A stretch of 26,060 nucleotides of DNA from assembly GCA_030167865.1 (NCBI GenBank), contig JALAGF010000577.1:62001-88060 (forward strand), read 5' to 3'. The first letter of the stretch is position 1; every line of letters begins with the position of its first letter. Below the pieces are notes generated by a model. That model made no database searches and was not told the origin of the DNA. It was given only the letters and a program-made list of their open reading frames with translations. Of the stretch, positions 71 through 24,226 are shown in pieces. Source of the stretch: Craspedostauros australis (taxonomy: Eukaryota). A program made the translations under genes and the position numbers.

Positions 71-994
71 GCAACAGCAACAGCAGCTAGCAGAACTGCA
101 CACGATACTCCGCTCGCTACATCCACTCCATCTACTTCACCTAACGCGCCCAATGCGCCAATTGTCTCCTCAATGCGGAGCTTCCATCTCAGCAAAATAA
201 CAATTCATTTTTCATCCATTCATACACGCATCAGTGCAACGTGGAGATGCTCTGCCAGATGTCTTGATGCAGCGGCATAGCTCATATCATAATAGTAGAA
301 TACGTTGTCAACTGTCACAACAGGATGAACTCATTTTCACAAAAAATGATAGCAACTGTAGTTCGTAGTTGCGATTTCCGAAGGACGAGCTGGTCAAAGG
401 GCAAGCGAGCACTCGCAACTGCTCTCCTGGTCGACACAACTTCGCCTCGGCATCACACAGATCGTACTACCCATAGTCATAGTACCATCCTGTAGGAACC
501 ACCATCCTGCGGATCTGTGATGTGCCACAAGAATCACGCTCATCCGATTCCTTTAGTCGTATCTGTAGCTTAGCAAATTGTTAGCATTTCTGTGGCTCGG
601 ATGAGTCACACAATCTTGAATGACTCCTGCGACCACCTGGTGACGAAAAACGGAATGAGCTTTGGTGACGTCTTCTGTCACCAACGAGAACTCTTTCTCT
701 TGGATCTTGGTTCTGGCTGGTTGGACGAAAAAAGAGAAAGAAAGAAAACAATCGATTCAACAGCACACGAAAGCGATTGCGCGAAACTCATCCATCACCG
801 ATGACGATGCGAATCCGCGGAACTCCGCTTGGCGTGGGTTGTGGAATACACGAATACGTACTTGGGAGTCAAGCATCATACATAGTGCGAACGCGGAGAG
901 AAAGAGAGAGCAAGAGAGCGTGCTGGTGCAACTACGCTTACAATTGCACTTTCATCAGGTCTCCAACAAGATCAACAACAACAACAACACAGGC

Positions 995-2557
995 ATGTCG
1001 TTTGGAGGCAACTTTCGCATGCTACCTTCCACAGCCACCATGACGAGGAACGAGGACGAGAATGCTGGGAGCATCGGAAGCACCGACGCCAACAGCAGTG
1101 CCAGCAACGACCGCAGCACGAGAACGACCGCAGGCTTTGGGATCTTTCCCTCCTCTTTGCTGCCAAGTTCCGCCGCAACGGATCCCAGCACATCACAACA
1201 AAGGGCATCGACCAGCCTAACCACGAGCATGACAGCTGGCACAAGTGGCAGCATTGCGGATGAAGGCCATCTGGAGGCCGCCATCCTTTCCGCCTACGAT
1301 CTTCCAACCAGTCGTCAGCCCATTGCGGTGACCATGAACATTGGCAACGTGACTGTTTCCACAGGGCCTCCAGTTGCCAAGCACAAGGATCGCAACTCCT
1401 TTCGCTTCAGCACCGGCAATGTGTCTTCGCCAGCATCGGCAACTGCGTCGTCCAGCATGCGCACTTCGTCAACGGAGAGCGCGAACGATGCCAATACGAA
1501 AAGCCACATTCTGCGCATCGTCAAGCCCTTTCCACAGCTGTACAGATCGACCGCGACGATCCGCCTGGTCTATGACGACCCAGATCTCAACCTGGAAACG
1601 AAGCTCTCGCTCAACGATTTGTGCATTGGTCAAACATCCTGGCAAATTCTCAATTTCATCCAATCGCCATCATCATCGTCATCACCAACACCACTTGCAG
1701 CAGCAGCAGCAACAACAACAACAATAACTGGAAGGACCCCGAATGCTGCAGGTACATCTGCAACTACTCATACTGCGACAGCATCGGCCGCGACAAGATA
1801 TTCCGCTCCATCGGTTGGCGATGACGTCGGCGACAATCCACCACCGACCATACGAATCAAGGTTCATCTGGATGCCCCGTACCGACCCGAAATCGCAGCG
1901 CTCATCGCCATCGCGCAATGGTGGTTCCATCTCGTCGATCGAACAGAGGATTGGATACGCGACGCTGCATCCAAGATACGCGTACCGACATCCTCCAACA
2001 TGATCCTCCTGCCATTGATTCCGCTCATCACGGCCATCGTAGTGGCGTCGCCCATCATGATGGGCACGCTCCTCGTTTTCATGCCCGTCGCATTGCCGTT
2101 CTTCATCATCGCGATCACCTCGATCGTCGCGTCCGGCCTCGTGATGTATTCCAGCACACGCCACGGACGAGAGCATATTGGCGGCACGGTGTTCATACCC
2201 TTCGCCGATTCGTTGCTGTTGTCATCCAAGGCAGGGCAGCGACTGATCTATCAAACTGGACCGCGCCCAACGCCTGTCAGCCTCGTGCGGCACATCCTGC
2301 CGACTGATCCCAACTCCCTGTGGGTGTCGTTGGCGATAGACTTCGTGGGTTCATCGTCGTACCTGTTGCCGGTCGTCGGCGAGCTGTTCGATGTGATTTG
2401 GGCGCCGATCCAATTCATACTGGTGATGGCCATGTACGACTCCGTCCACTCCAACTTGAAGTACGTGAGCCTCGTGGAAGAGCTGATGCCGTTCACAGAT
2501 ATCGTGCCAACGGCGACAATTGGATGGATCATGGAGCACTACGGTGTTCATTCGTAG
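995..2557 (+). CDS. StLDP: Stramenopile-type lipid droplet protein (StLDP)-like, 520 aa
   Basis: First ATG (995) of the 662..2557 ORF, following a CAA-rich leader. A ~50-aa hydrophobic stretch carries an exact P-X9-P-X10-P-X3-P pattern (P-LITAIVVAS-P-IMMGTLLVFM-P-VAL-P, 2021-2098), the motif reported for diatom StLDP. There is a C2-like N-terminal segment (GHLEAAILSAYDLP) and a hydrophobic C-terminal block (IDFVGSSSYLLPVVGELFDVIWAP...EELMPFTDIVPTATIGW). Confidence 0.8.
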   Translation: MSFGGNFRMLPSTATMTRNEDENAGSIGSTDANSSASNDRSTRTTAGFGIFPSSLLPSSAATDPSTSQQRASTSLTTSMTAGTSGSIADEGHLEAAILSAYDLPTSRQPIAVTMNIGNVTVSTGPPVAKHKDRNSFRFSTGNVSSPASATASSSMRTSSTESANDANTKSHILRIVKPFPQLYRSTATIRLVYDDPDLNLETKLSLNDLCIGQTSWQILNFIQSPSSSSSPTPLAAAAATTTTITGRTPNAAGTSATTHTATASAATRYSAPSVGDDVGDNPPPTIRIKVHLDAPYRPEIAALIAIAQWWFHLVDRTEDWIRDAASKIRVPTSSNMILLPLIPLITAIVVASPIMMGTLLVFMPVALPFFIIAITSIVASGLVMYSSTRHGREHIGGTVFIPFADSLLLSSKAGQRLIYQTGPRPTPVSLVRHILPTDPNSLWVSLAIDFVGSSSYLLPVVGELFDVIWAPIQFILVMAMYDSVHSNLKYVSLVEELMPFTDIVPTATIGWIMEHYGVHS

Positions 2558-3329
2558 GCCACCGACGGGTCGAAGATTGAGGAAATGAGGCAAGCCACGA
2601 GACCCGGTCATGGCCGCCGGTCGTTTGCGTTGCGACTCCCTGCGGCATGCGCAGATTTGCCGATACTACCATTCTCCGACACGCAGATGGCGTGAAACCG
2701 AGAAGCGATATCCTCTCTTTCTCCCTCTCTTAGAGAAAGGGAGAGAGAGAGACTTCCAACGTTTCCAGTTTCACTCTTTTCTCCTGGTCCATAATCCTAT
2801 TATAGTATATGAATTCTGGGTACGAGAATGGATTTCATGTCGTACTCGTGCTTCGAGGGTATCACCACAGAATAAACATGAATCCGATCAAGATGGCAGC
2901 AAGCACACCTACCACACTTACAAGCAGTATTCTGCGGGCGGCCTGCATACGACGAGCTATGCGGACGGAAGAGATTGGAAATGTATGTAAGTATGTATAA
3001 TATGTATGTGGAGACGCTATAACATGTATCATAATATGGAGTAGATTGTTCATTCTTCAATCCTCGGGCTTCGATGGTATCCCTCATCGCATGGTCAAGG
3101 CTTGCACCACAGCCCAGTAAGAGACCAACATCTGCCTTCATTGCTGCTACAGGAGCTGGATGCACGAGTATCCATACTCGTTGAATGGTCTCATTCAGAG
3201 CTCTTCGGCGACTTGCTTCATTTGGATGACTTGGGAGACTTCGTCTTGCTCTCCTTTGATGACTTGTCCGATTTGTATGATTTCGCCCCCTTCGTGCTGC
3301 GCATGTAAGATGGTTGGCAGGAAGGGAAG

Positions 3330-3627
3330 GACGACAGCGTGGGCGACAGCATGGACGACGGTGCGGATGACGGCGTGGACGACGGAGCCGATGACGGCGT
3401 GGACGACAGCATGGATGACGGAGCGGATGACGGCGTGGACGACAGCATGGACGACGGCGCGGATGACGGTGTGAATGACGGCGCGGACGACAGCGTGGAT
3501 GGTAGCGCAGATGGCGGCGTGGATGACGGCGCGGACGACAGCGTGGATGACGGTGTGGACGACGGCGCAAATGACAACGTGGATGACGGCGTGGATGACG
3601 GCGCGGATGACGGTGCAGATGACGGCA
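3330..3627 (-). repeat. Coding 12-bp degenerate tandem repeat encoding (S-S-A/T/M-P/L)n, a mucin-like linker
   Basis: Plus strand shows recurring GACGGCGCGGAT/GACAGCGTGGAC-type units, translating on the minus strand as PSSAPSSTPSSTL... Confidence 0.9.
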
Positions 3628-4841
3628 TCTTCGAGTTGCCGTTGCAGAATTCCAGTGAACCCATGAAGTACTCGAAGGAACCATTGTAGAGAGGAGGAGG
3701 ATTATCACCGACAACACCGCTCGCCGTTCCCATAAAGATAGTGAATGGGCAATTGTCGCAATCAAGCCAGTCTGGAGGGATAGGAAAGATGGCGTCCGAA
3801 TATTCATTCCCTGTGCTCGTTCGTGTATCGATGCGGATGGAGATCACGTCGTCGCTTTCGGACACAGCCAAAGGTTGATCGAATGCAATCACATCTGTGA
3901 ATTCACCATTACCTCTGGCCTCGATCGTTCCCGATGCAAGTTCTGTCCAATTCCCGGGTGCATCCCACGTACTTGGGCGGTAGAAGATTGTGAAAGTTTG
4001 GTTCCCCGTCGATGGCAGGACAAGCCTCATGCCTGTGATGTCGACACTGTCCAGAATCTGAATGTCGTGTCGCACTGAAGCGGCCGTGTCGTCATAGAAT
4101 GATCTTGGGAGACCTGCTGTTTTTGCGTCGCGGCAGGTGTCTGTTGGTGCCTGTGTGGGGTCTGCGGATGGCTGGATTGATGACGATGGTGTCGTAGTGG
4201 GGGGAGCAGATCCAGTGGGGGAAGCAGATCCAGTGGGGGAAGTTGACGGCATCATCGAGTTACCGTTGCAGAATTCCAGTGAACCCATGAAGTACTCGAA
4301 GAAATCACTGTAGAGAGGAGGAGGGTCATCACCGACAACACCGCTCGCCATTCCCGCAAAGATAGTAAATGGGCAATCGTCGTAATCAATCCAGTCTGGA
4401 GGGATGGGATTGATGACTTTCGAGAATTCATACCCTGTGCTCGTTAGTGTATCGATGCGGATGGAGATCACGTCGTCGCTTTCGGACACAGCCAAAGGTT
4501 GATCGAATGCAATCACATCTGTGAATTCACCATCACCTCTGGCCTCGATCATTCCCGATGCAAGTTCTCTCCAATTTCCGGGTACATACCACGTACTTGG
4601 GCGGTAGAAGATTGTGAAAGTTTGGTTCCCCATCAATGGCAGGACAAGCCTCATGCCTGTGATGTCGACACTGTCCAGAATCTGAATGTCGTGTCGCACT
4701 GAAGCGGCCGTGTCGTCATAGAATGATCTTGGGAGACCTGCTGTTTTTGCGTCGCGACAAGTGTCTGTTGGTGCCTGTGTGGGGTCTGCGGATGGCTGGA
4801 TTGTTGGCGATGCTGTCGTAGTGGGGGAAGCAGATCCAGTT
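3621..4841. repeat. Intragenic tandem duplication with 624-bp period (208 codons)
   Basis: ~3621-4217 matches ~4245-4841 at a constant offset of 624 (e.g. GAATTCCAGTGAACCCATGAAGTACTCGAAG at 3647 and 4271). The shadow ORFs 3875..4078 and 4499..4702 are near identical. Confidence 0.95.
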
Positions 4842-7234
4842 GGCATCTCGGTGCTCGAATCCCGACAGAATTCGAGGATGCCGGAAAAGAGGGGGAACTC
4901 ATCGCTGAAATTGGGCGGATTGTTTCCAACTTCGAGGCTATCTCGTCCGGCGAATACCTCGAATGGGCAGCCTGGGCACTCGACAATTCCCTCTCGGATC
5001 ACAATCGGATAACCTGTTGAGGAAGCCGGCAATCTGTCGGTCATGTCAATGCGGAAGGATACGATGTCATCCTCCGCGGTCACCACCACAGGCTGATCGA
5101 ATATGAGGGAGGGGGAGAAGCCAGACGAGTCCTTTTCTCCATTTTTTCCTGATGCAATCTGAGTCCAGGGACCATCGGCATCCCAGGTGCTTGGACGGAA
5201 GAACATCGTGTATGGCATGTTGGTGAGTTCAGGAGCCACGGAAACCTTGATGGCGGTGAATTTAGTGAGGTCCAGTATGCGAACATCGAATCTGAATGAC
5301 TCAATGCGCTCATATGAGCGAAGTATCTGGATCCCTGGATAAGTCCACATGCCACAATTCTCGGTTGGGACAGACGAGGGGGTTATACTCGGGACATTCG
5401 ATGGGGCTGATGACAATGATGGTGCCATAGAAACGGATGGTGTCGCGCTTGGTGGTTGGCAGAAATCCAGTTTCACGCTCACCGTCGCACACATGGGTGT
5501 GGCCGACTCATCGTCGATGTTGGATACCGAAACAACGATCCCATCCAGCAAAGACGACTGGGCGTCAATTCTGTATGATGGTTGTGTCGGGTTCAGGATG
5601 GCCTCCAGATGAGAGAATGGGATCCAGTCAAAGACGCTGTCTTGTGTCCTTGTCACGAGGATCTGATCCCTGCCTAGTGGAGAATCGGTGTTGAAGCCTA
5701 TGGCTCTGTTGAAGGCGATGTAGTACTTCAATTCACTCTCAGGATCGTCAATTCGGATGATGACGTCGAAGCTGGTGTCAGCGGGGTCATAATCGACCAC
5801 TCCGCAGAGCCTTCCCTCGAAGTCGACGTCTTGACCTCCGGTGAGCAATGTGGTCTGATCGGAGTACCACCCCGTCAGCCAGCTCTTGGCACCTATGTGT
5901 GGTGGAGGGGCAGGCACATGAGTAATGATATTGAAGGGATAGGTTCGTAGCAGGAGCATGAGGGTGTGAAATGATTTGGCGTGGACGTAAAGAATGAAAC
6001 GATGGAGAAGATAGTGATTGTTGAGGCAGTGTACGTAGAGTGTTGCATCGTATCGTATGTGATGAGGTGACACGACTCCTCCTGGAACGGAATCATTTGG
6101 GCCCTTGCTCTCCGCAAGGCAACGGCGCCGTAGCACTTACCGTTGTACCCTCTCTTATCGGTCAGCGTTTCATTACGAAATGAATTATAAATTGACCTTC
6201 CCATCGCGCCACTGCGGAATAATAGTCGATGTTGGGGTCGGAATCCATTGACCGGAGGACGTCAACAACGAGGAAGAGGATACACGAAGACGGGTTAGAT
6301 GGACTTCGAACGATAAACAGGTTTCCTGCCATGTGATGAGGATCAGAACATGGCAGACGCGTCCAATGTGCTCTCTCTGGAGCTTGATTGTGTGCGTTCT
6401 TGTGTCCGGTCGTCCATCCGTCCACAAAGATTGATGCAGAATGTCACAGATCATGTCCAGTCTCTATCTCTGCTGGCACATTGGCTGCGCTTACCTGGAA
6501 TCTTCGTACAGCACCCCGTTCCGATTGGAAGGGCCAAGCCCGAAGTTGCTACCAAGTCGGCGGACGATGATGGAAGGGTTGGTTGCCCAGTGCGTGCCTG
6601 GATAGTTTCTGATACCGTTGTACACACTGATCTTGTGGTCCAGATGAGCGTACGCTGTGAATCAGTGGTGTGTCGGTTACGTCGATGCGCGCGTTGATAA
6701 CCGGGAGAGTTTGACTCCCACGGAAGAAAGATGGTATTGCACGATGGAGTGAGATGGGTTGGATAGGAGTATGAGCACGGGTAGAGCTCGTCACGATACC
6801 AGTGCGAAATGTTGATATGGAAGATACGAGTTGTGTGGTCCTTGTCGGCACTTACCGACCCAATCAGGTCCTCGGGAGCTACCCAACGAGAATGGGATCA
6901 TGATCAAGAAGAAATCAAAGTCATCATAGATCTTGACCTCCTGCTTCAGATATTGGGAGACGAGATTACTGACTGTTATTGCCTCGAGAGTGGCGGGATC
7001 AACATCAGGTGAAAACTTATATGTCAAAATCCCATCATCTGTCCCATTCGTGGGCATGGTGGAGAGCCTCAGCTTGTCAAAAGACATGGCCGCGAACTGG
7101 TTGGTGAAGTTGGGTTGAGCGCCGAAGATCTCGTCTTTGATGAGGGATTTAGGAACTGTGTAGTTTGTTTGGAAGACGACCTGGATGAAGAGGAACTTCT
7201 TGTCGCCAGAACCACGGACATCAGGAGTGGTCAG

Positions 7235-7460
7235 AGAACGACCATGTCCATGTCCATGCCCATCGCTTTGTTCGCTTGGTTGACGATTCTCGATGTTCAT
7301 GTCATCGACTGTCTTCAAGTCCACGTTGTTTCTGGAGAATGTCATCATCGATGTCACCGACTTCTCCTTGAAGCTGCCGGACTTGAAGACAGTCGATGAC
7401 ATGAACATCGAGCATCATCAATCAAGCGAACAAAGCGATGAACATGGACATGGTCGTTCT
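7235..7460. repeat. Long inverted repeat: arms 7235-7322 and 7379-7460, 56-nt spacer
   Basis: The reverse complement of 7379-7460 matches 7235-7322 with 5 substitutions and one 6-nt indel; the inner ~33 bp are perfect. The ORF track shows MFMSSTVFKS...DLKTVDDMNIE on both strands. Confidence 0.95.
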
Positions 7461-9987
7461 TGGCCCATTCCGGCGTCAGCCCTTCAATGGTCAAATGCAC
7501 AGGCCCATGTTCTTCCTCATCGGAGCCTTGGAGCATGCAAGATAAGTCAGTTGCATCCGTTCCGTCGGCAGCGCCAATGATACGGGCCGAGACGAGGCAT
7601 GGCTCCTGCAGGGTACTGTGTTCGCCCGAGGCAGCGTCATGCGTCTGAATTGAGTTCGATTCAGTTGTTGGTTTTGTGATGAAGGATGTGACACGACGTG
7701 ATGTAATGTGTTGTGATGTATTGCGTAATACAAGGTGCAATACAAGGTGCAGAATCATGGTTGAGTTGAGGATGAGATCACTGAATTGGATGCACGTACG
7801 CGTATGTCTGTGGATGCGGATGCGGCAAGGCAGGAATTCCAGCAAAGAAGGAGCCCCCACACGCCGAGACAACAGTGACAGTTGCCATCTTACTTGTACT
7901 CACCGTCAACTTTGGTGTCGGGGATGCCACTGCCGTAGCGGCAAGCGCCGCAAGCACCACAGCAGCAAGGATTCGTTGGTAGAAGTGAGAATGCATGGCT
8001 TTTTGTCATCAACGAGATGAAGGATTTATGAGATGATTTGGAGTCCGAGGAAGGAAGGGACGAACAGCAACAGGAACTGCTGCCATTCCTTCGCCAGCCG
8101 CCACATTCATTGGCTTTTCGCATGCGGTGAACGCTTCCCTCTTGTGTGGGTGGGCTTTTCGGTCGCCTCTTTTCGCGATTGAGGTTGATGCCAGGTTGGG
8201 GGTGTCTTCATGATCGGTGGTGGAGCACTCGTATCGGCATGGTATCCATGGAGAGGACGAGCAGGTGGATGAGTGGGGGAGCATCTGTCGTAGAATAGTA
8301 GAGTAGCCATGCGTACACCGATGGGTTGCTGCGCATGAGCACGCGCACGACTATGAGTCGCTTGCATGCGCATCACGTGTCATGGTGGGTGGAACTTGTG
8401 GCCGTTCGCTGGAACTTTGTGTGCCGAGGTTCCTCAACTCCATGGATGGTCGTGCGGAGAAGCCACCCAGACAGTTCACTTGGAAAGATCTCACCAACAC
8501 CAATTATTGTGGAAGAACAGAACAACGTTGTCATGTGGATGTCGCTCAAGACGATCCATTTATGGACCAACCTCGTGTCACATGTCGTCAACGGAACTCA
8601 AATTTGTGAGTGGAACTACCCTGAGCGCACTTGAGTGATTGTGACATTGGATTGGTGGCATTTTGCGCCCTTTGGGTCATTGAAGTGACGATCGGATGAC
8701 GCCATCTGCGTTTGGGCGCTTTGCGACAAACCCGAACGTGTCTCGGAATCCCGAGTGTGGGACAAACGGTAAATTACATATATTTTGGATCTCAGTGGGC
8801 ACCAGCAACAAGGAAACGAACATTATAAACTAGCGCAACAAAACTAGACACCACAACATCAGATGTGGTCGGCATTGCGGCACTCTTTGTCGTGTTCGTG
8901 CTCGCGTGCAAATCCAAGAGCAAGTCTTGTCACCGTCGCCGTCAGGAACGAAGCCGGGGCATCAGTTGCGGCGACGCCAGCCAACGAAACAAGGTGTTAT
9001 GTTCAATGCACACATGGACACATAGCAAAGCACCAGAGCATCCCGAATCCCGCTTCATTCCATGTTGCGCTCATGGTCAATGTTGGTTGCTCGCATTCCC
9101 CGCGTCGGGAAAGGGCGAGTGGAAGACAGAATCAAGAGGGGAGAGGCGTCGTGGACGAAAAGAAGAATCTTGGAAGGGCCTATCCCTGTGTTGCAGGAAA
9201 CGGTGTTGCTGATGCCATCCCACCACATTTTCTTGTGTTGTGTCAAGTCCACGAGTGAAGGCATGCATGTGCAACTGTGGCAGAAAGATACGTTCGGTTT
9301 GACCCAAGGCGGCTGTGCGCGAATGGGGACTGGAAGGGAGCGATGTTTGTTCCACTCCAGCCATAATTATTGGATTGGCACGATCCGAATCATGTCGAAA
9401 TCACATCACAAACAAGATTCCGTTGCTGATGTGACATGCCAACAACATGCGGTGGACGAGCCGGTTGGCATCAAATTCGGCCACCCCATCTGTTGGCACC
9501 AGCCACAACAACGCCATGACGACAAATCGAACTTTGTGTGTGTCGCCACCACCTGTCACATGAAGTTTCTTCACAGAGCGCACGAGCAACAGAGACGGTT
9601 CAGACAGAGTGAAGGAACCACAAACACACCAGTCCGAGTTGAGTACTCACACGATCTCTGCGAGACGAGGCACGGGAGGTGTGAAGGCTCCGATCTTCCA
9701 TCCCTGGCCCCACCCAAATCAAAGAAAGCGCACATCCGACCAGCTTCAACGTGGTTGCTTCCGACAAACAGTCATAGTGAGAGCCAGAGCACTTGCGCCC
9801 TCCCTTGTGGGTCATGTGTCGCTGTATCTGTACCTCAGCTGGGAAAAGGGCGACAACATCGGCACCCGCCACTGGTTCGAACACACAGGAGTCACAAACC
9901 AACAAACCAACAAACCATCCGAATCAAGCCAAGCCAAGCCAAGCCAAGCAACACTTACCGATACTAACAACAACATCGCTCAGACGA

Positions 9988-12702
9988 ATGCACCCACCAA
10001 ACGGATCGACGATGTTTGACTTGGAAAGAGACTCGTCTCCACCTTCCGGCCATCCGTCATCTCGTGCCCAATCGGCACGCAGAGGCAAAGTCGGCACAGC
10101 CATGATGAGGACAGCGATGGCTGTTCTGTGCATCTCCAATGTCGCATCCATGGCATTGGCCGATCTCGACGTGTACAAGGAAATCAACGAAAAGCTATCC
10201 ACCACAGAGGCGCAGGAGATCATGAACGGCTTCGTCCTGACCGTGCGGAACGGCAGCATCTTCCGTCGGTCCACTGAGTACCAATGGGGGGACTTCATGA
10301 AGGCCTACAGCCAGATCACCGGCGATCCCGATGCCAACACGCTGGCGGGGCGCCAATTCTTGAATGGCGGCTCCGCCAAGGCGGGCATCGTCAACATCGC
10401 GCTGTTCATTGCGCAATCCCTGCACGAGTCCATCCAGTACGACGCGTGCGACGAAAACAACTACAGCGCCGACGTCCCGGGCATCCCTGATTATCCCATC
10501 TCCTCCGCTTGCGGGCAAAATGGACAGGACTACACCAAGTACACATGCTTCGGACCCGAGGGTCCCAACAACCGGAATGTGGAATGCCCCGTGGATCTCG
10601 ACATGCAGATCCAGGCCCGAACCAACGCTCTTTGGGGTGGTTCTCCGCCTCCGCTGTTTTGCGCGCCACGCTCCGAAACGGGAGGCGGAACGCCGCGATG
10701 GGACAGCACCCCAAACTGCGTCGGAAAGCCAACTGGGACGATCCCAATCCCAGAATTCCCCCAGCCTTACCTTGAAGACGCTCTTCAAAAGGGTACGGGT
10801 GAGCTGCTGTGCAATGCCTACACGGGGCAATCCGTGGGAAAGTTCACATCGGAGGGATGCGACGCCGAGATCGGATGCCCCAACGCGGTGACCATCGATA
10901 CCCAGGGCGGCACTGTCCACACCGACGTCGAGGGATGCTGCTGGTGGGGACGCGGTGTCATCCAGACAACGGGCCCTTGCAACACCGGTCGGTTCAATTA
11001 CTACCTCACAGGAACGTACTATGACGAGAATGGCCTGCCGCAGAAGGAGAAGGAGGGCAACTACCCTTACCCCGATCTCAACCTCTGCACGGATCCTGGC
11101 CTCATCTGCAACGGTCCCGGCGAACTCAAATGGACCTCCGGCTTGTTCTTCTGGCTCTTCAGCGTGGAGGGCTACTCCAACCCGACCAACTACGACTATG
11201 ACCACGAGCTGCTCCTGGAGGAGTTAGGTGAGGCCATCTTCGACTACCCTCCCAGCGGCCGCGATTTCGTCGACCTAGTCAGCGGTCTCATCAACCGTGG
11301 ATGCCCAGCGGTAGAGTGCCCCGCCGGGCCTGTGCTGGCCTTGGAGGATCGATACAAGAACTTCATCAAGACCATGGAGGCATTGAAGCACGTGTACGAT
11401 CCAAGCACCTACCCCAAGCCAGCCGGGGAACCTGCGGGGCCGTACCTCGGTCCGTGGTTCTCTCCCCAAGTACTGTGCGAGCCGTGCAAGGACATGCCAA
11501 ATGCCGACTGTGGTTTGACATGGTATCAAACCAACAGCCCAGTCTGCGTTGGATGGGCGCAAAGCCCCGAAAACTGTGCGGCATCTGGTGGCGTGGCAAC
11601 TGCCTGGTGCGCTGGGGTGGATTTCAGTGATCAACCATCGCAGGCACCTGTCGCGACCAAGGCACCAGCAACCACCCCACCCACCGACGCGCCGGTCAAT
11701 GCCGATTCGGCCATGCCAACGAATGCAGACACTCACGCGCCAACGAATGCTGATTCGGCCATGCCAACGAATGCTGACACTCAGACGCCAACGAATGCCG
11801 ATTCGGCCATGCCAACGAATGCAGACACTCACACGCCAACGAATGCCGATTCGGCCATGCCAACGAATACAGACACTCACGCGCCAACGAATGCTGATTC
11901 GGCCATTCCAACGAATGCAGACACTCACACGCCAACGAATGCCGATTCGGCCATGCCAACGAATGCAGACACCCATCTGCCCACTATGGCAACTGCTTCA
12001 CCATCGTTCGCTGATATCCCCATCAAAGACTTCGGCGATCCTCCCAAGGAGAGCGATTTCCCTCTCTCCCTCTGCGAAGGTGACTGCGACGCCAACGACG
12101 ACTGCGAAGCGGGCTTGGTCTGCTTCCAGCGCGGCGCTAACCAGCCAGTTCCCGGGTGCATCGGAGCCCCGAGCTCCCGCACGGACTTTTGCGTTCCGCC
12201 ATCCAAGATCCCCGACGCAGATCTTCCAATCAAGGATTACGGTGGCTCTCCTGATATTATCCTCGGTCGCTGCGAGGGTGATTGCGATTCCGACTCCGAT
12301 TGCAAGCCCGGTCTCAGGTGCTATCAACGATCTAAAGGCCAATCCATCCCTGGATGCTACGGCGAATTGGGATCCAACAGCGACTTTTGCATTCCCAAGA
12401 CCGATACGACGGCCCCCGTGACGATGCCGACCAGCTCACCGAACAGCAGCAAGCCGAAGCGAATGCAAATCGTGGACTACGGCAGCACGCCCAAACCGGA
12501 AGACCTTCCGTTGGAACGTTGTGCTGGCGATTGCGATAATCATACTCAGTGTGCCGACGGCCTGGAGTGCTTTCAACGCGATGCTGGCAAGCCTGTGCCT
12601 GGATGTGATGGACCGTTGGGGTCCAACAGTGATTTCTGCGTCATCCCTGGATTGACGGACGATGACTACGAAGACAGTCGCCGCAACCGATTGAGGCATT
12701 AG
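9988..12702 (+). CDS. Secreted GH19 chitinase-like protein fused to a Cys-rich module, a PT-rich repeat linker and three frustulin acidic cysteine-rich (ACR) domains
   Basis: Single long ORF with in-frame ATGs at 9988, 10012 and 10102; the last opens a signal-peptide-like MMRTAMAVLCISNVASMALA. GH19 motifs are IALFIAQSLHES (Glu codon 10426) and CCWWGRGVIQTTG..N. The C-terminus has three copies of C(E/A)GDCDxxxxCxxGLxC(F/Y)QRxxxxx(V/I)PGCxGxxxSxxDFC. Confidence 0.85.
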   Translation: MHPPNGSTMFDLERDSSPPSGHPSSRAQSARRGKVGTAMMRTAMAVLCISNVASMALADLDVYKEINEKLSTTEAQEIMNGFVLTVRNGSIFRRSTEYQWGDFMKAYSQITGDPDANTLAGRQFLNGGSAKAGIVNIALFIAQSLHESIQYDACDENNYSADVPGIPDYPISSACGQNGQDYTKYTCFGPEGPNNRNVECPVDLDMQIQARTNALWGGSPPPLFCAPRSETGGGTPRWDSTPNCVGKPTGTIPIPEFPQPYLEDALQKGTGELLCNAYTGQSVGKFTSEGCDAEIGCPNAVTIDTQGGTVHTDVEGCCWWGRGVIQTTGPCNTGRFNYYLTGTYYDENGLPQKEKEGNYPYPDLNLCTDPGLICNGPGELKWTSGLFFWLFSVEGYSNPTNYDYDHELLLEELGEAIFDYPPSGRDFVDLVSGLINRGCPAVECPAGPVLALEDRYKNFIKTMEALKHVYDPSTYPKPAGEPAGPYLGPWFSPQVLCEPCKDMPNADCGLTWYQTNSPVCVGWAQSPENCAASGGVATAWCAGVDFSDQPSQAPVATKAPATTPPTDAPVNADSAMPTNADTHAPTNADSAMPTNADTQTPTNADSAMPTNADTHTPTNADSAMPTNTDTHAPTNADSAIPTNADTHTPTNADSAMPTNADTHLPTMATASPSFADIPIKDFGDPPKESDFPLSLCEGDCDANDDCEAGLVCFQRGANQPVPGCIGAPSSRTDFCVPPSKIPDADLPIKDYGGSPDIILGRCEGDCDSDSDCKPGLRCYQRSKGQSIPGCYGELGSNSDFCIPKTDTTAPVTMPTSSPNSSKPKRMQIVDYGSTPKPEDLPLERCAGDCDNHTQCADGLECFQRDAGKPVPGCDGPLGSNSDFCVIPGLTDDDYEDSRRNRLRH
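11698..11973 (+). repeat. Coding minisatellite: alternating 24-bp subunits (48-bp period) encoding PTNADSAM/PTNADTHT
   Basis: CCAACGAATGC recurs every 24 bp, about six higher-order units, in frame within the chitinase ORF. Confidence 0.95.
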
Positions 12703-13235: not shown

Positions 13236-16200
13236 TTACATCCCAATCCTCCCTCGCTTCTTCGGCATGAAACGCGAATTCTTGTTGGTCACGCGTCGGC
13301 CAGGGGTGATCATCGTCAAGCCTCCCGACGATCCTCCCCTTCTTTTGAATGACGCAGAACGCTTCTTTTCTTCCTCTTCCTCATCCTTCTTGGCCTTTTC
13401 GTCCGCCTCTTCCCTCATCTTGCGCTTCGCGACCAGCTGCTTTTCCATTTTGACCTTTTCCAACTTCTTCTCCTGTCGGCGCTTCAGCGTGGCCTCGAAG
13501 GATTCCTTGATGGAGAAGAACATGGGACCCAATTCGGCCAACCATTCTCCCTCCACGGACGTGACGCAGGACATGTACTCCTTCGTCGTGCTGATGAGTT
13601 CGTGGTAACACACGTAGTCGGGCGTGAAACCAAGACCGAACAACGCGCTCGAAGGATGCAAGGCAGATGGGATCCCGGACAGCATGTTGATGTATTCGCC
13701 GATCCCCTTGATCTTGGAGCTGTTGCAAAAGTAGGCGGAGCAGATGGCCTTGCGCACCGCGTCCCACGATCCACCGCAGCTCATGGGTTCGAGCCTTTGT
13801 TGCTTCATCAAGTCCACGAGCTGGGCATGCACCTCTCTGGCCTTGCGGATGCCCTTGGCGTGGATGAAGTGCCTGGCGCACCACTCCGGATCGAAGCGGA
13901 ATTGCTTGGCACGGAGGTAGACGTTGAGGAGGGTGAGGTGGTCCGATTCCGGCACGAAGAACTTCTCACGCGCCGCATCGGACTCTTCCTCACGGTCCTT
14001 GGGACGGAAGAAGACGCTGGGGACGCTGAGCATGCTGACGACGACCAGGACCTCCGTCGAGCACTCTCCATGCTCGTGAGCGTATAGCAGCATCTTGCTG
14101 AGGGATGGGTCTAACGGGAACTCCACCATGCGACGTCCCAGATCGGTGAGATCGCCAGTGTTGTCGAGCGCACCGAGGATCCACAGCTGGTACAACGAGC
14201 TCCGGATGTTGTCTTGCGGCGGTGGGTCCATGAAATCGAACTCCAACAAATTTCCAATCCCCAACGACTTGAGCAGTAGGACGACGTTGCTGAGATTCGT
14301 GCGCTGGATTTCAGGAACCGCCGTCTCCATCAGCTCGTCTCGGAACTGTCGATCCGTGTAGAGGCGGAAGCAGAATCCCGGCCCGGTACGTCCGGCACGA
14401 CCGCTGCGCTGGTTTGCATTGGCCTTGCTCACGGGCGTGACGAGCAGCGCGTCCATACCGATCTTGGAATTGTACACCTTGAGTTTGCAATACCCCGAGT
14501 CAATGACGTATCGAATACCGTCAACCGTCAAACTGGTTTCTGCCACGTTGGTGGATACGACGCACTTGCGAATGCCTTTGCCGGCAGCTTCGAAGATCTT
14601 GGCCTGCAGGTCGGCGGGCAGTTGTGAGTACATGGGAAGCACTAGGAGAGGTGGCAGATCTTCACCCAAGGTCTGCATCTTCTCAGCCAGCAGCGTGCAG
14701 GTTCCTTCGATGTCTTCCTGTCCAGTCATGAAGATAAGGATGTCGCCAGGTGGGCTGTTGAAGTGGATCTGGAGCGCCTGCTTGACAGCGGCCATCACGT
14801 AGTCCTCCTGGACGGATTTGGCGTAGTAGGTCTCGACGGGGAATGTCCTGCCTGGAATGCGGAAGATGGGAGCGCCGCCGAAGTAGTCGCTGAACACGTC
14901 GGCACTGAGCGTGGCGGACGTGACGATGAGCTTCAAATCCGAACGACGCGCCACGACCTTTCGAAGAACTCCAAACAGGACGTCGCTGTTGAGCGAGCGC
15001 TCGTGCGCTTCATCCATGACCAGGGCGCTGTACTTGTTCAGATCCGGGTCGTTCAAGCTCTCGCGCAGCAGCACACCATCCGTCATGTACTTGATCTTGG
15101 TGTGTTCCGTGGTGCAGTCCTCGAAGCGAATAGCGTACCCGACGGTGCCTCCGAGCTCCTCCTTCTTGCCGGGTTCCTTGTTGCTGTCCACCACGCCTGC
15201 AGTCACCTCTTCGCTGACACGCTTGGCAACGCTCATGGCGGCCACGCGACGGGGCTGCGTGCAGCCGACGGTCCCAAAGTCGCCGTATCCTTCCTCCAGC
15301 AGGTATTGCGTCAGCTGCGTCGTCTTTCCGGAACCCGTCTCACCGACAATAATGATGACGGAGTTCTCTCGAATGACGTTAAGCATATCATCCCGTACCG
15401 TGAAGACGGGCAGGTACTCTCGCTGCTGCCGGATCGTCTTGGTCTTGGCGAATGCCGAAACGGCCTCGTTCGATGGCTTTTCCTTCATGTGCTTGGCAAA
15501 TCCGGATGACTTCTTGTAGTCAATCTCGCCATTCTCGGTGGTGCTGTCCTGCGCGCCCTGCTTCGTCTTCTCGTCGCCGTTCTCGTCCGTCTCCTTGACG
15601 CCGACGACATCTCCCATGCGCGTGCCGCCGAGCTCCCAGAATTTCTGACGCATGGTGTGCTTTTCCTTGTTGGCGCGCAGGTATCGCAGAATCGCGGATC
15701 CTTCGCGTGCCATCTTGGCAAAGTCGGAGCTGGAATCCCTGACGGTGGGGACGGATTCGCGGATGGTGGAGAAGGAGACACGTCCGTCAAGGAAGGGCGG
15801 TTGGACTTGGTGCACCAGCAGCGTGACGCGTGTGTCCTGTTCGGAGGCCACGTGATCAAGATCGATCTCCTGACGCATGCCCGCTCCGCTCTGCAGCAAC
15901 CGGCTCTCCTCCCACCGATTCTGATCATCGTTCATTGCAGACTTGCGAGGGTTGAATTTGTTTCGACGCTTCTTGTCCATGTCATTTTCGCGGGCCTTCG
16001 TCTTGTCGTTCTCGAAGAGGAAGCGTCCCAGATCTTCGCCGCCCGCGCCGGGATCATTGTCGAGGACGTAGCCGCCTTCCTCCTGGTCCATGTAGAAGCT
16101 GCGATCGAAGTCATCGCCTTGCTGCTTTTCGATCTTTGCGACTTCTTCCGCGTTGCCGTTGCTGGGAACGCGCATGGGCGTTTCCGAATCTCGGAACGAT

Positions 16201-16550
16201 CGTCTGCGGCTGCGAGATTCGCGGTTGCGAAATTGGGAGTTGCGGTCGGAATTGCGGTCCTCACCACGGTCGTCATTACGGTCGTAGTTGCGGTCCTGAT
16301 TCCTGGGCTGGAAGCCACGTTCCGTATCTCGGCCACGAAACTGAGAGCCACGTTCCCTGTCGCGAAACTGGGATCCACGCTCTTGCTGACGAGATTGCGA
16401 GCCTCGATCCCGGTCACGAAACTGGGAGCCACGCTCTTGACTCCGGTGATTGCTGCGATGGTTGCTGTGGTGACGACGCATGCTGCCGTTGTGGCGTCGG
16501 TCGCGATCGTCATCCCGGTTTCTGGGATAGCCGTCATCTCTGCTGCTCAT
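13236..16550 (-). CDS. PRP16: Pre-mRNA splicing factor DEAH-box RNA helicase PRP16/DHX38, 1104 aa, apparently intronless
   Basis: Motifs [38 protein letters not shown] and QRSGRAGR, plus HA2/OB-type C-terminus. N-terminal region ([37 protein letters not shown]) is typical of Prp16 rather than Prp22/43; RD/RS-rich N-terminus. Confidence 0.93.
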
Positions 16551-17383
16551 GGTTGCTTGTCAGTTGCTCTGAACTCGAAGTGAGAAGAGTGGAAAGAAAA
16601 AGAGCAAAGAGTGCACGCGCCGTATTCTGATGTGATTTGTTTGGGCCGTTTCGATTACTCTGCGACGATCTGCTCGATGCGATGAGCAGGTGGGTGCGAG
16701 GTGTTGATTGTGGATGTGCGATGACCCGTTCATTGTTTGTGCTCATGTTGGTGATGTGGGAGATGATGGTCAACCAAGGAAATGCAGAAAGATGTGCCAA
16801 CACTTCGGTTGGATGGCCTCTCTGTGATGTCTGCCCATGCATCCGTATCTTTGACCGTGAATGGCTTCATCCGAATCACGAGTTATGCGAATTCCCACAA
16901 CATCGCAATTGATGATGTGTCAGTTTGCGAAGTGACGTTGTCGCCGTCGTGATGATGTGGTTTGGGCGTTTCTCACGTGTTGCATGAGGGTGTTCCAAAC
17001 AGTTCCAAAACAAGAACGGAAATGATCAAACCGTTGGCGAAGTTACGAGATGGGCTTGCAAGCACACGAGAGCGTGGGTGTTGCACGAATGATTGGGGGC
17101 GGAGCAACGTGGCTTGTGTTCGGTCCCATCAACACACCACACACACATGCTTTGTTCTCGATAAGTATTGCCACCACGAGCAGAGTACTTCGAAGATCCT
17201 CGGCCCTCCCTGCCACCATCTTGCCCATAAAACAACATCAACAGCAACAACCAAGGCCACCAATCAATCAATCAATCAATCGACCAAGACGTGAAGCAAA
17301 TCAATTCCAATCCAACGCACCCATCAAACTCCAACATTCATTCACTCGTTCATTCATTCGTCCATCCTCGTAATCACATCATC

Positions 17384-18778: not shown

Positions 18779-21700
18779 ATGTCCAGTTCCGGATCATCGT
18801 CACGCAAGGCGCGCAAGGCCGCGTTGAGCAAGTACAAGCAGGCCAAGCAACGCCGCGATGCTGGAATGTCGGTTGTGGACGATGTCTTCGACGAGCAAAT
18901 GAAGGGGATGGACGACGACGTCTACGATCTCGTCAGCAACGAGCAGTACCAGGACATGGTCGAGAAGCGCCGCCAACGAGAAGACTTTGTCGTTGATGAT
19001 GGTACGTTGCTTGCTTGTGGTATGCTCTGTGCCTCTTCACATGTTGCGTTCTGCCGGCGCGTCCTATCCATGTGCTCTGCAACGCATCTGCGCATCTGTG
19101 ATCTCCCCAATGCTTCACGCTTATTCCATGTCTCATCGTATGTCTCATTGTATTCACCACATCTTTCGGCATCACCCGCCAACGCATTTTACTCAACAAC
19201 AACAACAACAAATCGTCACCACGAACAGATGGCCTGGGATACTACGACGACGGAGAAGAGAAGCTGGGAGATGAGATGGGGAGCAACGCTCCAGCGCGCA
19301 AGCGCAACAGTACAGCCGCGTTGACCTCCGCAACCTTGAAGAAGGCACGCAGGGCCAAGGCAGCAATGCGCGGATCGAAGAAGAGCAACAGTCTTGGAGC
19401 CACCGCCGAGAATGAGAATGATGGCGACGATCTGCGTGACAATCGCAGCATTTGGGACTTTGTGCAGCGTGGTGGACCATCGTCCGTCAACAAGAGCACG
19501 GCGCGCAAGTTTGAAAGTCGCGTGCGCAGCAACGGCGGTGGTGCCTTCTCCAGTAATATGGGCACGAACAACGTGGACGACTTGCTGAAGCAGCTGGATG
19601 ATACCGATGATGTTGCAGTTCGGAGCAGCCGAGGCGGCAGGGGTCGTCATTCCTCGCATGGTACACGAGGCCGCCGAGGTCGCGACAACCGCGCATCTAT
19701 GAGATCCAAATACTCTCGACCCAAGCCATCCAGTAGAAACCACGACAGCCACGACGATGGTGCGGATGGTGACAACTTTGACGATGATGATAACGACGAC
19801 CACAACAATTCACTTCTTGTTGCAGGTGATGACGACGCCGACGAAACGGCCGAGGATGATCGCAACGAGGGTGGTGCCGCTGACGCAGCCACAATCGATG
19901 TATCCAACACCAATGCCAAGCACGCCAAACACGATACCGAAGATATGGAGGAAGATGGCAAAGTGGAATCATCTGCCAGCGCAGTCACGAAGGTTGCTGA
20001 AGGTAGCAGTGACAACAACGGCAGCACCAGCACCACGGAAGATGGTAAGCAATCGTCCGCTGATGGAGATGGTAACGACGTCACAGCAGAAAGCAAACAG
20101 GCCAAGGCACCGGCGCGGCGCCTTGCCCGACCAAAGTTGGGGGTTCGCTCTGCACCAGCTCAAAAGCTGATTGATGAACAGAAGAAGAAACAACAGCAGC
20201 AACAGCAAACGCAGATGCAAAAGGAACGAGAGGCCACCGCCAACAAGCAGAACAAGCCAGCGACGAAGCTGTCCACAGTCGTCATTCCAGACACTCTCTC
20301 TCCGTCCTTCCGTCCAGACGAGATCGCTGCCGAGGCCACGACTGCCACACCGGCCACCAACACCACCCTAGAGCAGTACTTGCACACCAAAGAATCAAAA
20401 GCCACCGATGGCAACGATGATGGCGAGCAGGGTGGCAACGGCGAATGTGGTCAGTACCTCGACATGTTCTGGTTGGATGCGAAGGAAGTCGAAGGCGAGA
20501 TTCTACTCTTCGGAAAAATCCAATCGAAGGCTTCCCAGCAGGCATCGTCCAAGAACACATCCGCCGGCGTCGGCGCAGGCAGCCACGCCAAGTTCGAAAG
20601 CTGTTGCGTGACCGTGAAGGGCAACATGCGCAATCTCTTCGTTCTGCCGCGCAAGGATCCAGCCACCGGAGAGCCTGCCGGCATGATGGAGGTCCATCAA
20701 GAAATTAAGTCGATCCTGCATGCCTCATGCATCCCGAAGCAGGCCGGATCTCAGTTCGGTGCCAAGATGGTGAAGCGCAAGTACGCCTTCGAGGATTCGG
20801 ATGTCCCTCGTGACGCAACCGATTACCTCAAGGTGGTGTACGATGCAAAGCATAGGGCACCGCCTGCCGACGTTTGCCGCGCGGGCGGCACGCACATCCA
20901 GAGGATCATGAACGGCGGTGCCAGCGTGCTGGAAACCTTCCTGCTGAAGCGCAAGCTCATGGGCCCATGCTGGATCCGCATCAGCAACCCGACGGCGCTG
21001 TCTCGCTTCTGCAGATCCTGGTGCCAAATCGACGTCGCCATCGATTCTCCGAAGCAGATCTGCCGTCTCGACAAGGCCGTCCCCAACGGCACGCCGGCAA
21101 GACCAGCACCACCGGTCGTCACCGTCACGATGAAGATCAAGTCCATCGTCAATGCGAAGACGCACAAGAATGAGATCGTGTCCGTGAGCGCGGTGTGTCA
21201 CAAGCAGGTTTGGTTGGATTCATCTACGGATGAAACCAAGAAGAGCCACATGACCCAGCTGTCCCTGATCCGACCAATCCACACCGAGGAATCCACGGAC
21301 ATTCGGGGCATCGCCAAGTTCCCACGCGACATCAACGGCGAAATCAAGCGTCGCATGCCGCAGCTCCAGATGATGCCAAACGAGTACGCTCTCCTGAACC
21401 GCTTGGTGACTCAGATCGGAGTGTGGGATCCAGACGTCCTCGTCGGCCACAACGCCTACGGTCACGATCTGCACGTGCTGCTGTCCAGATGCGTGGAGAA
21501 GGGCGTCAAGATGTGGTCGAAGGTTGGGCGATTCCGTCGCATGCAGGCTCCTCACAGGACCCGTTTCACGTCCGGCAAGGATTGGGCCATCATGGACGCG
21601 GTGGCAGGTCGCGTGGTGTGCGATACCTATCTCAGCTCCAGGGAGCACCTTCGCGAAACCACGTACTCTCTCAAGCATCTCTCCGAGACGCAGCTCAAGA

Positions 21701-22533
21701 CCAGCCGGCACGAGATCGAGCCCATGGATGTGCCACGGTACTTCCATTCCAGCGCCTCAATCGTGTCGCTCGCCTTGCACACCTTGAACGATGCCCAGCT
21801 TGTGCAACGACTCATGTTCAAGCTGCAGATACTGCCCCTCACAAAGCAGCTCACGAACATCGCAGGCAACGCTTGGTCCAGCACGCTCAAGAGCAACCGC
21901 GCGCAACGCACGGAGTACCTGCTCCTCCACGAATTTCACCGTCTCAAGTACCTCGCACCCGAAAAGATCAAGGAGAAGAAGGAGGAATCGGGCAAGGCCA
22001 AGTACCTGGGAGGTCTGGTTCTCGATCCCAAGAGAGGCTTCTATGACTCCTTCATCCTCCTTCTCGATTTCAACAGTCTCTACCCGTCCATCATCCAGGA
22101 GTACAACCTGTGCTTCACGACCGTCGATTGGTCAGAGTATCAATCGTCCAACCTTAGCAGCAGCCGTAGCAGGGGTGATGGTGATGGTTCGAACGAAGTT
22201 GACCCATCCACCGCCGTCACTGCCGTCGGCAAACAAGATTCCGAAAATCTGCCTCCCATTCCAGACTCATCATTGAACCGTGGAGTGCTGCCAGCCGTCA
22301 TTAAGACGTTGGTCGACCGCAGACGCAACGTCAAGAAGATCATGAAGACGGAGTCCAACCAGGATCGCAAGGCCGAGGTACGTATCGCATCAAGACAATT
22401 ATGTGTTTGAGATGCACGTGCGTTGTGCGTGTGCACGTTTTTTGCTTGCGTTGATGCAAATCAGACACTTCGATGTTCTGATGGGTGCTGTCTGTCACTG
22501 TCACTCACACATTTATCACCACCACAACCAATC

Positions 22534-22566
<33 letters not shown>

Positions 22567-24226
22567 GTTTGACATCCGGCAGAAAGCGCTGAAGCTGACA
22601 GCCAACTCCATGTACGGTTGTCTCGGATTTTCAAACTCTCGCTTCTTCGCGAAGCCCATCGCCGCGATGGTCACTTCGATGGGACGCAAGACGCTGCAAC
22701 GAACCGTCGACATCGCCCAATCGAATCTTGGCATGGATGTCATCTACGGTGATACGGACAGTATCATGATCAACACCAGGATCACCGACAAGGCATCCTT
22801 CGCCAAGGTGCGCGAGCTTGGTGAACAAGTGAAACGCGAAGTCAACAAGCTGTACAAGACGCTGGAGCTAGAGATCGATGGGATCTTCGGAAAGATGCTG
22901 CTGCTCAAGAAGAAGAAGTACGCCGCGACGGTGATCGATATTGATCGTAGCGGCAACATGACGCAGAGCAGGGAGGAGAAGGGACTGGATCTGGTCCGCC
23001 GTGATTGGTGCATCCAGTCCAAGGACAGCGGTCGATACGTGCTGGATCAGATCTTCTCCGACGACGAGCACGAAACGAAGCTCGCCAACATCTTCGTCCA
23101 CCTGGAAGAGCTCGCCGAAAAGATGAGAGCGGAAAAGCTGCAGCTCGGCAAGTACATCATCACCAGAGGCCTGAGCAAGCACCCCAACGACTACCCGGAT
23201 GCCAAGTCGCAACCGCACGTCAGCGTCGCGAAGATGATGATCAAGAACAACCTGAGGCTGACGGTGGGCGATCACATCCCGTACGTCATCACGAGCCAAC
23301 TGCCCGGCGACGACGAATCTCAGAAGGGAAAATCGAAATCGTCAGCGGAACGTGCCCGTCACCCGGAGGAGGTCGCACGAAGCGCAGGCGTCCTCAAGCC
23401 GGATGTGGAATGGTACCTGTCCCAGCAGATTCTCCCACCGGTGTTCCGTCTCTGCGAGGTCATCGACGGCATCTCCCAGGGTCTTCTGGCTGAGAAGCTG
23501 GGCCTTGACGCCAAGCGCTTCGCATCGATCAGCGGATCCTCGGGAGGTATGGAGCTTGACGACAACGAGCTGGTCAACTACAAGCCGGAATCCCAAATGA
23601 AGGACGAAGAGAGGTTCAAGGACGTCGAGAAGGTTTCCCTTTGCTGCGCCTCCTGTGGCGAGGAGAATGTCTTCCCTGGCATCCTGTACTCCAAGAAATC
23701 CGACGCGGGCACGTACCATCTGCACTCCGGTCTGCAGTGCGTGAATCCGGATTGCGAGAAGCCAGCCAACTGGGGTCTCGGCACCCCGTACGACTGCATG
23801 TCCCTCATCGCGAACTCCATGTCGCGGCTTGTCTCCAAGCGTGTTGGGGACTACTACAAGGGAGAGATCAAGTGCGACGATCCCCTGTGCGGGTTGGTGA
23901 CGCGTCAGCTCTCCGTCGCCGGGGGAGTTTGTCTGCGTCGCGGTTGCACGGGGCAGATGAAGCCCGTGTTCACGGAGAAGGCCATGCACACGCAGCTCAA
24001 GTACCTCGACTGTCTGTGCGATCTCAACCACATCGCATCGCAGCTGGAGTCGAAGGGATTGCACGGGACGCAGAAGGAGATTCTGAGCACTTCGGTTTCA
24101 CGTTCCGACAAGGCCGTTTGCGCAGAGCTCCACGAATTCGCACGGCAGCATCTCGAGCGGTCGGCATTCAACTGGATCACGCCATCGTTCTGGACATCCT
24201 TGTTTGGGACGCAAGCGAAGCAGTAG
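18779..24226 (+). CDS. POLA1: DNA polymerase alpha catalytic subunit, 3 exons (18779-19001, 19229-22377, 22568-24226), 1676 aa
   Basis: Splicing restores the Pol alpha N-terminal motif [17 protein letters not shown]. Family B motifs [19 protein letters not shown] and YGDTDS; two C-terminal Cys4 clusters (CASC...CVNPDC; CDDPLC...CLRRGC). Both introns are GTACGT...CAG with matching phases (1 and 0). Confidence 0.96.
22535..22567 (+). repeat. (CAA)10 microsatellite running directly into the CAG acceptor of POLA1 intron 2
   Basis: Directly visible in the sequence; gives the spurious poly-Q in ORF 22403..24226. Confidence 0.9.

Follow-up and report, generated by a model that had tools for sequence, protein, structure and literature searches.

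A gametolysin-family (M11) homologue in Craspedostauros australis with all zinc-binding and catalytic residues of its motif replaced

Background

Inactive homologues occur in most peptidase families, and among the metzincins the pseudopeptidases of the ADAM group are well studied. Here we describe a candidate for such a protein in another metzincin family. It is encoded on the minus strand of a 26,060-nucleotide (nt) stretch of Craspedostauros australis DNA (GenBank assembly GCA_030167865.1, contig JALAGF010000577.1, positions 62,001 to 88,060), referred to below as the window. The locus is a five-exon nuclear gene of a diatom-type genome. It is a member of the gametolysin family (MEROPS M11), within the branch that has expanded in diatoms. 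Its product has R, R, S and P at the four motif positions where the family has its three zinc-binding histidines and the catalytic glutamate.

The closest described cases are ADAM2, 11, 18, 22 and 23 of family M12, extracellular pseudoproteases with other residues in place of the zinc ligands and the general base and with the Met-turn kept; they act by binding instead of cleavage, according to passages of a review (PMC11266112). To judge by its residues, the window protein resembles them in being a metzincin homologue, predicted to be extracellular, with zinc ligands and general base replaced and the Met-turn retained. It differs in belonging to M11 rather than M12 and in lacking the disintegrin, Cys-rich, EGF and transmembrane domains of the ADAMs. 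The functions of the ADAM proteins are demonstrated, whereas the window protein is known from sequence alone, and the resemblance would be one of function only. The passages of that 2024 review found by term search mention no M11 pseudopeptidase, and none is described in the parts consulted of the open literature on gametolysin and M11 in diatoms, a search that lay outside subscription journals and MEROPS.

Within M11 itself, one natural member with an altered first zinc ligand is on record: VMP3 of Volvox has QEXXH, is active and prefers copper (Heitzer & Hallmann 2002, as cited in a passage of bioRxiv 10.1101/2020.06.30.165720). VMP3 changes one ligand and stays active, whereas the window protein changes all four residues. 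With the gametolysin/VMP family in general (M11, PF05548) the window protein shares a putative signal peptide, a pro-domain, the Met-turn, the KSW..GWY region and a Ser/Pro/Thr-rich tail; in contrast to that family it has RRxxSxxxxxP for HExxHxxxxxH and has lost the conserved cysteines. Excerpts of two further papers concern M11 in diatoms: M11 domains are reported to be expanded in Chaetoceros tenuissimus (PMC8613185), and a gene described as 'autolysin ... such as gametolysins' is part of the early response in Pseudo-nitzschia mating (PMC8769554).

Gene model and relationship to the M11 family

The positions of the exons are given in Table 1. The predicted protein starts with a charged n-region followed by a long Ala/Val/Leu stretch, judged by eye to be a signal peptide. 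The four clear introns are 201-283 nt long and of the GT-AG type, with donors gtgagt, gtaagt or gtaagc. Exons 2 (from 7414), 3, 4 and 5 join in frame, all intervening introns being GT-AG, and the roughly 1,100 codons from the second part of exon 2 (2b) to exon 5 contain neither a stop nor a frameshift. Exon 3 is bounded by an AG acceptor at 6656-6655 and a GT donor at 6494-6493, and the minus-strand translation of 6658-6494 contains IIVRRLGSNFGLGPSNRNGVLYEDS. The pro-domain part of exon 2 shows an L.EPC...L.C...EW pattern, and the M11 domain begins in the same exon at KKFLFIQ (7201). Exon 5 begins with the conserved C-terminal part of the M11 region (AKSW..GWY, extending to about 5330); three predicted beta-sandwich modules in tandem, a tail rich in Ser and Pro and a Lys-rich end follow. 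These features suggest an architecture in which a signal peptide and a pro-domain with cysteines precede an RxL site and the M11 domain, and in which the three modules are followed by a stalk rich in Ser and Pro and by the Lys-rich end.

Exons 2, 3 and 5 share one frame, so that the region 7414-5201 could be used as a read-through query with stop codons written as X. A phmmer search with this query against 1.84 billion representative sequences returned 461 matches at an expectation value (E) ≤ 0.001, 25 of them at E ≤ 1e-10 (best 3.8e-15), all with their best stretch on the start of exon 5. The named relatives are diatom proteins, from Thalassiosira sp., Cylindrotheca fusiformis and an MMETSP transcript. 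Among 108 matches bearing the K.W..GW anchor, 40 have it within their first 30 residues, which fits a conserved exon start just before AKSW; fragmentary gene calls would look alike. For a family profile we used the 34 homologues with at least 230 residues upstream of this anchor. PF05548 (Peptidase_M11) scores above the Pfam cut-off in 32 of the 34, the two without it being P0015 and P0060.

The spliced protein matches the 34-homologue profile with 231.5 bits as one domain spanning profile positions 20-424 of 436, compared to 3.7 bits for the best of 200 shuffled sequences. The M11 similarity proposed in the earlier note is thus present over the whole catalytic domain, and to judge from this alignment the spliced protein is an M11-family homologue. 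The homologues were recruited via exon 5, so exons 2, 3 and 4 form the independent part of the test: together they score 88.7 bits against a best of 0.1 bits in 100 shuffles. Taken singly, the exon 2 open frame (7414-6794) scores 39.3 bits and exon 3 scores 17.2, and exons 3 and 4 together reach 35.2. The exon 3 open frame alone matches 21 of 150 homologues at E ≤ 0.01 (best 7.6e-07). The alignment to the profile is free of gaps across all three junctions between exons 2 and 5, which supports the splice model.

The zinc-binding motif

Exon 3 (6654-6495) and the segment RRLGSNFGLGPS (6562-6527) lie exactly where the earlier note had placed them. In the profile alignment the window has VRRLGSNFGLGPS under the family's mHEiGHNLglaHS, and at the aligned columns it reads RRLGSNFGLGP. 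The substitutions that the note had named, H>R, E>R, H>S and H>P, are all borne out, with the changed codons at 6562-6560 (R), 6559-6557 (R), 6550-6548 (S) and 6532-6530 (P); the H, E, H and H they replace are invariant in 34 of 34 homologues. The scaffold residues G, N and S that the note listed as kept are there as well, together with AKSW..GWY and the Met-turn Y.D.SG.MG. The latter spans the junction of exons 3 and 4, and its M and G columns are occupied by those residues in 33 and 34 of the 34 homologues, respectively.

The HExxHxxGxxH motif that M11 peptidases require is therefore absent from the window protein. With the three His ligands replaced by R, S and P and the general-base Glu by R, the zinc site is not expected to form, which would preclude peptide hydrolysis of the metzincin type. 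On these residues the product would be a non-peptidase homologue rather than an M11 peptidase, one that would lack the normal protease function.

Of the 150 listed homologues, 50 extend 75 residues or more beyond the K.W..GW anchor on its upstream side, and 46 of these have HExxH(x5-8)H intact. In three of the remaining four the sequence upstream of the motif or through it is unrelated to the family pattern, and we read these as truncated or mispredicted models.

The fourth is a metagenomic homologue (P0084) whose motif reads HKxGH (E>K) and whose CFN motif carries a C>Y change; the 50 include no other case of this kind. Judging by its motif, it may be another inactive member of M11.

An active peptidase could still be encoded if another exon supplied an HExxH or if the protein used an unconventional metal site, and the variant site of VMP3 shows that M11 tolerates one such change. 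We consider this very improbable, and close to refuted already. The earlier note had named alternative splicing to an intact HExxHxxGxxH as the finding that would overturn its reading, and the 26-kb window contains no candidate exon for it: its six frames hold only three HExxH, none of them M11-like. A profile scan of the six frames likewise matched only the three exon open frames, and between 5800 and 8400 only those resemble the homologues. As for an unusual metal site, zinc is not usually bound by any of the R, R, S and P now at the four positions, and the catalytic part (193 residues) contains only 3 His and no Cys.

Selective loss or decay

We counted a column of the profile as conserved where a single residue is common to at least 80% of the 34 homologues. 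The window retains 37 of the 49 columns of this kind. At the other 12 it shows H>R, E>R, H>S, H>P, C>M, C>M, C>G, R>Q, D>L, F>Y, T>S and V>I, the last three being conservative. With the four catalytic and the three cysteine columns set aside, 37 of 42 are kept, and this retention of 0.88 lies near the middle of the homologues' range (0.66-0.98, read from the listed values). Among the 16 columns that are invariant in all 34 homologues, the window changes only the four catalytic ones. The probability that all four catalytic columns would be included in 12 random changes among 49 is P = 0.0023, and P = 0.00077 without the cysteine columns; both tests are post hoc. The residues interleaved in the replaced motif, G, N, G-L and S, are all kept. 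The four codons (CGC, CGA, AGC and CCT) are at least six base changes away from His, Glu, His and His codons, indicating that the catalytic loss is old.

The concentration of losses on catalytic and cysteine positions, the several base changes this took and the retained scaffold lead us to infer long maintenance by selection. The pattern argues that the catalytic positions have long been free to drift, or were driven to change, under constraint on the rest of the domain, which would be the signature of a pseudoenzyme; such a concentration is unlikely under uniform decay. We propose that an M11 paralogue lost all zinc ligands and the catalytic Glu and kept most of its scaffold, the Met-turn included, and that selection would then have maintained a secreted, non-catalytic protein (a pseudopeptidase) over a long time. 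The remaining cleft, the beta-sandwich modules or both would probably bind something at the cell surface, and the present copy was possibly disrupted recently by a frame break inside a palindrome (described below). In our judgement this account, a long-maintained secreted M11 pseudopeptidase whose present copy has a possibly disabling break at the 5' end, stands an even chance of being right.

Several observations weigh against it. The three conserved cysteines are gone, and a fourth, less conserved one ('WC' before the motif) is A in the window by eye; the loss of all conserved cysteines could destabilise the fold. The earlier note had spoken of a loss of just the catalytic residues; the missing cysteines point the other way. 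The window domain is also the most divergent of the set. Leave-one-out profile scores of the homologues range from 264 to 484 bits (median 404), so that its 231.5 bits are the lowest, and with 0.755 its retention over all conserved columns ranks next to last among 35. It shares a median of 25.9% identity with the homologues, compared to 31.9% among the homologues themselves, and its terminal branch is the longest (1.75 versus a median of 0.81). The sister of the window domain in the tree, P0015, keeps HExxH...H. Pfam assigned no family at E ≤ 1 to the three exon pieces and none at E ≤ 10 to the stop-as-X read-through of exons 2, 3 and 5; active homologues from diatoms reach no more than 26-72 bits with PF05548, the cut-off being 21.

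Relatives that share the replaced motif are missing as well. The earlier note had suggested a survey for a conserved dead clade, and no such clade was found: a protein search with exon 3 (longer lengths) gave no match, and tblastn of metagenome contigs with exon 3 and with the start of exon 5 returned no relative. A protein search with residues 1-230 of exon 5 (near lengths) gave no match.

A further point against long maintenance comes from the tandem modules of exon 5. Over 168 codons, 7 synonymous and 25 non-synonymous changes separate modules B and C. The ratio of non-synonymous to synonymous rates (dN/dS, omega) is 1.05; the data reject omega ≤ 0.3 (P 0.0013) and are compatible with omega = 1. 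The differences are clustered, with 22 of 32 in codons 104-152 of the 168 (P 2e-5, computed for at least 21), a region that corresponds to one low-confidence loop of the module model. This clustering could reflect constraint elsewhere in the module, or it could result from gene conversion.

The frame break, the longest branch and lowest profile score, the B/C ratio, the disappearance of every conserved cysteine and the lack of an orthologue in our searches, which leaves the gene a singleton, speak for a plain pseudogene. Under this explanation an M11 paralogue of the expanded family is decaying, an inverted duplication in exon 2 has shifted the frame so that no full-length protein is made, and the replaced motif is part of the decay. 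Uniform decay, however, predicts neither that the changes in the 16 invariant columns should be confined to the catalytic ones nor that 37 of the 42 other columns should be kept. Nor does it account for the base changes piled up in four codons of an otherwise well-kept motif, for the intact coding sequence of exons 2b to 5 or for the preserved GT-AG borders of the four introns. The clustering of the B/C differences also speaks against it, with the caveat on gene conversion given above. We regard a plain pseudogene as a real possibility, albeit one that we would sooner expect to be wrong. The earlier note had preferred a binding or structural role to decay; the retained scaffold and the concentration of losses side with that preference, whereas the branch length, the frame break, the B/C ratio and the lack of a dead clade do not. 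A present-day binding or structural role is plausible, with later pseudogenisation as its live rival.

Pro-domain frame break and palindrome

Exon 1 and the first part of exon 2 form one frame through the pro-domain, up to a stop at 7356-7354. This frame aligns weakly to the pro-domain of the homologues (11 bits, E 4e-5), recognisable by the pattern given above. The frame of the M11 domain opens only at 7414. The change of frame in exon 2 lies between about 7465 and 7381, within a 248-nt palindrome, in its upstream arm in the sense of the minus strand. Complementarity between the arms is 93% over 75 nt and 85% over another 34 nt. The linker with the RSL site is encoded in one arm, and the frame break falls in the other, which is the reverse complement of the first. 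The predicted RNA fold of the palindrome is a hairpin of about 100 bp (-166.5 kcal/mol, z -17).

The RSL at 7240-7232 is the RxL site that the earlier note had reported ahead of the domain, and it aligns where the homologues have a conserved R-r-l. A passage of PMC9650480 names RXL as a potential cleavage motif of diatom frustule proteins.

The distance from EW to the SG of the next conserved patch is 11 residues in six pro-domain sequences (by eye). In the window it is 83 nt, about 50 nt too many and out of frame. As many as 165 GT/GC-AG pairs would restore an open frame across the break, a set that does not discriminate. Only one of them, a 50-nt intron at 7431-7382, gives the family spacing, and it yields an open model of 1,245 codons. 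The donor of this candidate is weak, its acceptor is AAG, and the other introns of the gene are four times as long, so it does not convincingly remove the break. The break may be an odd intron, a disruptive inverted duplication of the kind expected in a pseudogene, or an assembly fault, and the present gene copy may already be inactivated through it.

If the break and the palindrome were an assembly artefact or an allele-specific rearrangement, the real gene would be intact and encode the pseudopeptidase, so that this explanation is a variant of the one we favour, with the state of the 5' end as the sole point of difference. An artefact would fit the occurrence of just one copy of the palindrome in the window, the complementarity of about 93% between its arms and the confinement of the roughly 50 extra nt to one arm. 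Against it, the arms show a difference of about 7% and a 6-nt indel, which a fold-back read would not usually produce, and we think an artefact improbable.

Within the window there is no second copy of the palindrome, and an origin from a dispersed repeat, similar to a miniature inverted-repeat transposable element, was rejected for the window on that ground.

C-terminal modules and tail

The three modules are about 170 residues each and are joined by Ser/Thr/Pro linkers. They set the window protein apart from the M11 homologues, as they were not found among the 150 listed; none of the three has a Pfam family, and a protein search with modules B and C gave no match. A structural model of module B from a three-row alignment is a beta-sandwich, with a predicted local distance difference test score (pLDDT) of 65.2 and a predicted template modelling score (pTM) of 0.70. 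Foldseek found no match to it in the PDB at E ≤ 0.001, whereas VIA-align related it to PHR domains (Z 10.3-11.1), to the lectin-like domain of Cwp84 (Z 9.0) and to many carbohydrate-binding modules (Z 5-8). A search of the ESM Atlas with module B returned unnamed clusters and, at rank 17 with a score of 0.91, a Lectin_like cluster, which we take as a lead only. The model, which is moderately confident, suggests a beta-sandwich of a fold class typical of binding modules.

For the catalytic domain, a PDB sequence search with an active homologue (P0016) gave only matches at E 0.29-0.8, to MMP-13 and karilysin around the HExxH helix, and no M11 structure.

The Ser/Pro-rich tail lies at 3221-3625 (minus strand), and the last 139 residues of the protein include 57 Ser and 23 Pro. 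Such tails are also present in the homologues, where they carry PT repeats. The Lys-rich windows all lie within the last 24 residues, and the C-terminus, rich in Ser, Pro and Lys, has no hydrophobic segment. Pentalysine clusters are described in part of a published account as signals that target silaffins to silica (PMC9650480). Both features used as frustule-targeting criteria, RXL after a signal peptide and five Lys within 12-14 residues, are found in the window protein; Lys-rich windows also occur in 29 of 150 M11 homologues, so that this feature is not specific and offers a lead only. The window protein thus resembles the frustule-associated silaffins and cingulins in its signal-like start, RxL site and Lys/Ser-rich C-terminus; it has no sequence homology to them, and the likeness comes from sequence features alone.

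These features lead us to speculate on a more specific role, in which the protein would be an M11 pseudopeptidase tethered to the surface or the frustule and acting as a substrate trap or decoy. After processing at the RxL site, a zinc-free and disulfide-free M11 cleft would engage the targets of the many active M11 paralogues that diatoms have, or the inhibitors of these paralogues. The protein would be held at the surface by three PHR- or lectin-like tethering modules, a mucin-like stalk and a silica-targeting tail of the pentalysine type, and the transcript hairpin of about 100 bp formed by the pro-domain region would serve regulation instead of marking damage. Taken jointly, with every one of these parts correct, the proposal is unlikely.

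Feature positions and neighbouring genes

The features of the locus are collected in Table 1. Elsewhere in the window, a DNA polymerase alpha-type gene lies at 19102-24226 on the plus strand, with the Pfam families DNA_pol_B_exo1, DNA_pol_B and zf-DNA_Pol; it is split by an intron from about 22379 (gtacgt) that contains a (CAA)n run near 22535-22560. A DEAH-box helicase is encoded at 13236-16559 on the minus strand in a single open frame of 1,107 codons (DEAD, Helicase_C, HA2 and OB_NTP_bind). Three further open frames, at 659-2557 (plus), 9781-12702 (plus) and 24725-25828 (minus), comprise 632, 973 and 367 codons, respectively, and match no Pfam family at E ≤ 0.001.

Table 1. Positions of the M11-family gene and its features in the window (position 1 is the first nucleotide of the 26,060-nt stretch)
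Feature	Position	Strand	Remark
Multi-exon gene overall	7996 to 3218	-	window is eukaryotic nuclear DNA
Exon 1	7904..7996	-	ATG and signal-peptide-like start; followed by GT donor (gtgagt)
Exon 2	6856..7644	-	pro-domain, RSL site, N-terminal half of M11 domain
Inverted repeat (248-nt palindrome) in exon 2	7224..7471	.	arms 7224-7322 and 7379-7471, 56-nt spacer
RSL (RxL) motif ahead of the catalytic domain	7232..7240	-	candidate pro-peptide cleavage site, under the conserved R-r-l position of homologues
Exon 3	6495..6654	-	active-site-helix region of M11 domain; 53-residue segment
Replaced zinc-binding motif RRLGSNFGLGPS in place of HExGHNxxLxHS	6527..6562	-	from translation and profile alignment
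Exon 4	6141..6211	-	finishes Met-turn (SGAMG), ends YNG before AKSW of exon 5
Exon 5	3218..5892	-	stop codon 3220-3218
Repeat module A	4859..5368	-	36% identical to module B
Repeat module B	4250..4759	-	predicted beta-sandwich
Repeat module C	3626..4135	-	86% identical to module B
Lys/Ser-rich C-terminal end	3221..3292	-	four overlapping 14-residue windows with at least five Lys

Implications

Because inactive homologues are common, it is no surprise that a family which has expanded should include a dead paralogue. The present case contributes a clean example from family M11. To our knowledge, the roles of M11 proteins in diatoms, such as in cell-wall remodelling and mating, have barely been explored. 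If the gene is a pseudogene, it would only document turnover in an expanding family. If it is expressed, it would offer a way to learn which partners M11 proteases bind on the surface of diatoms.

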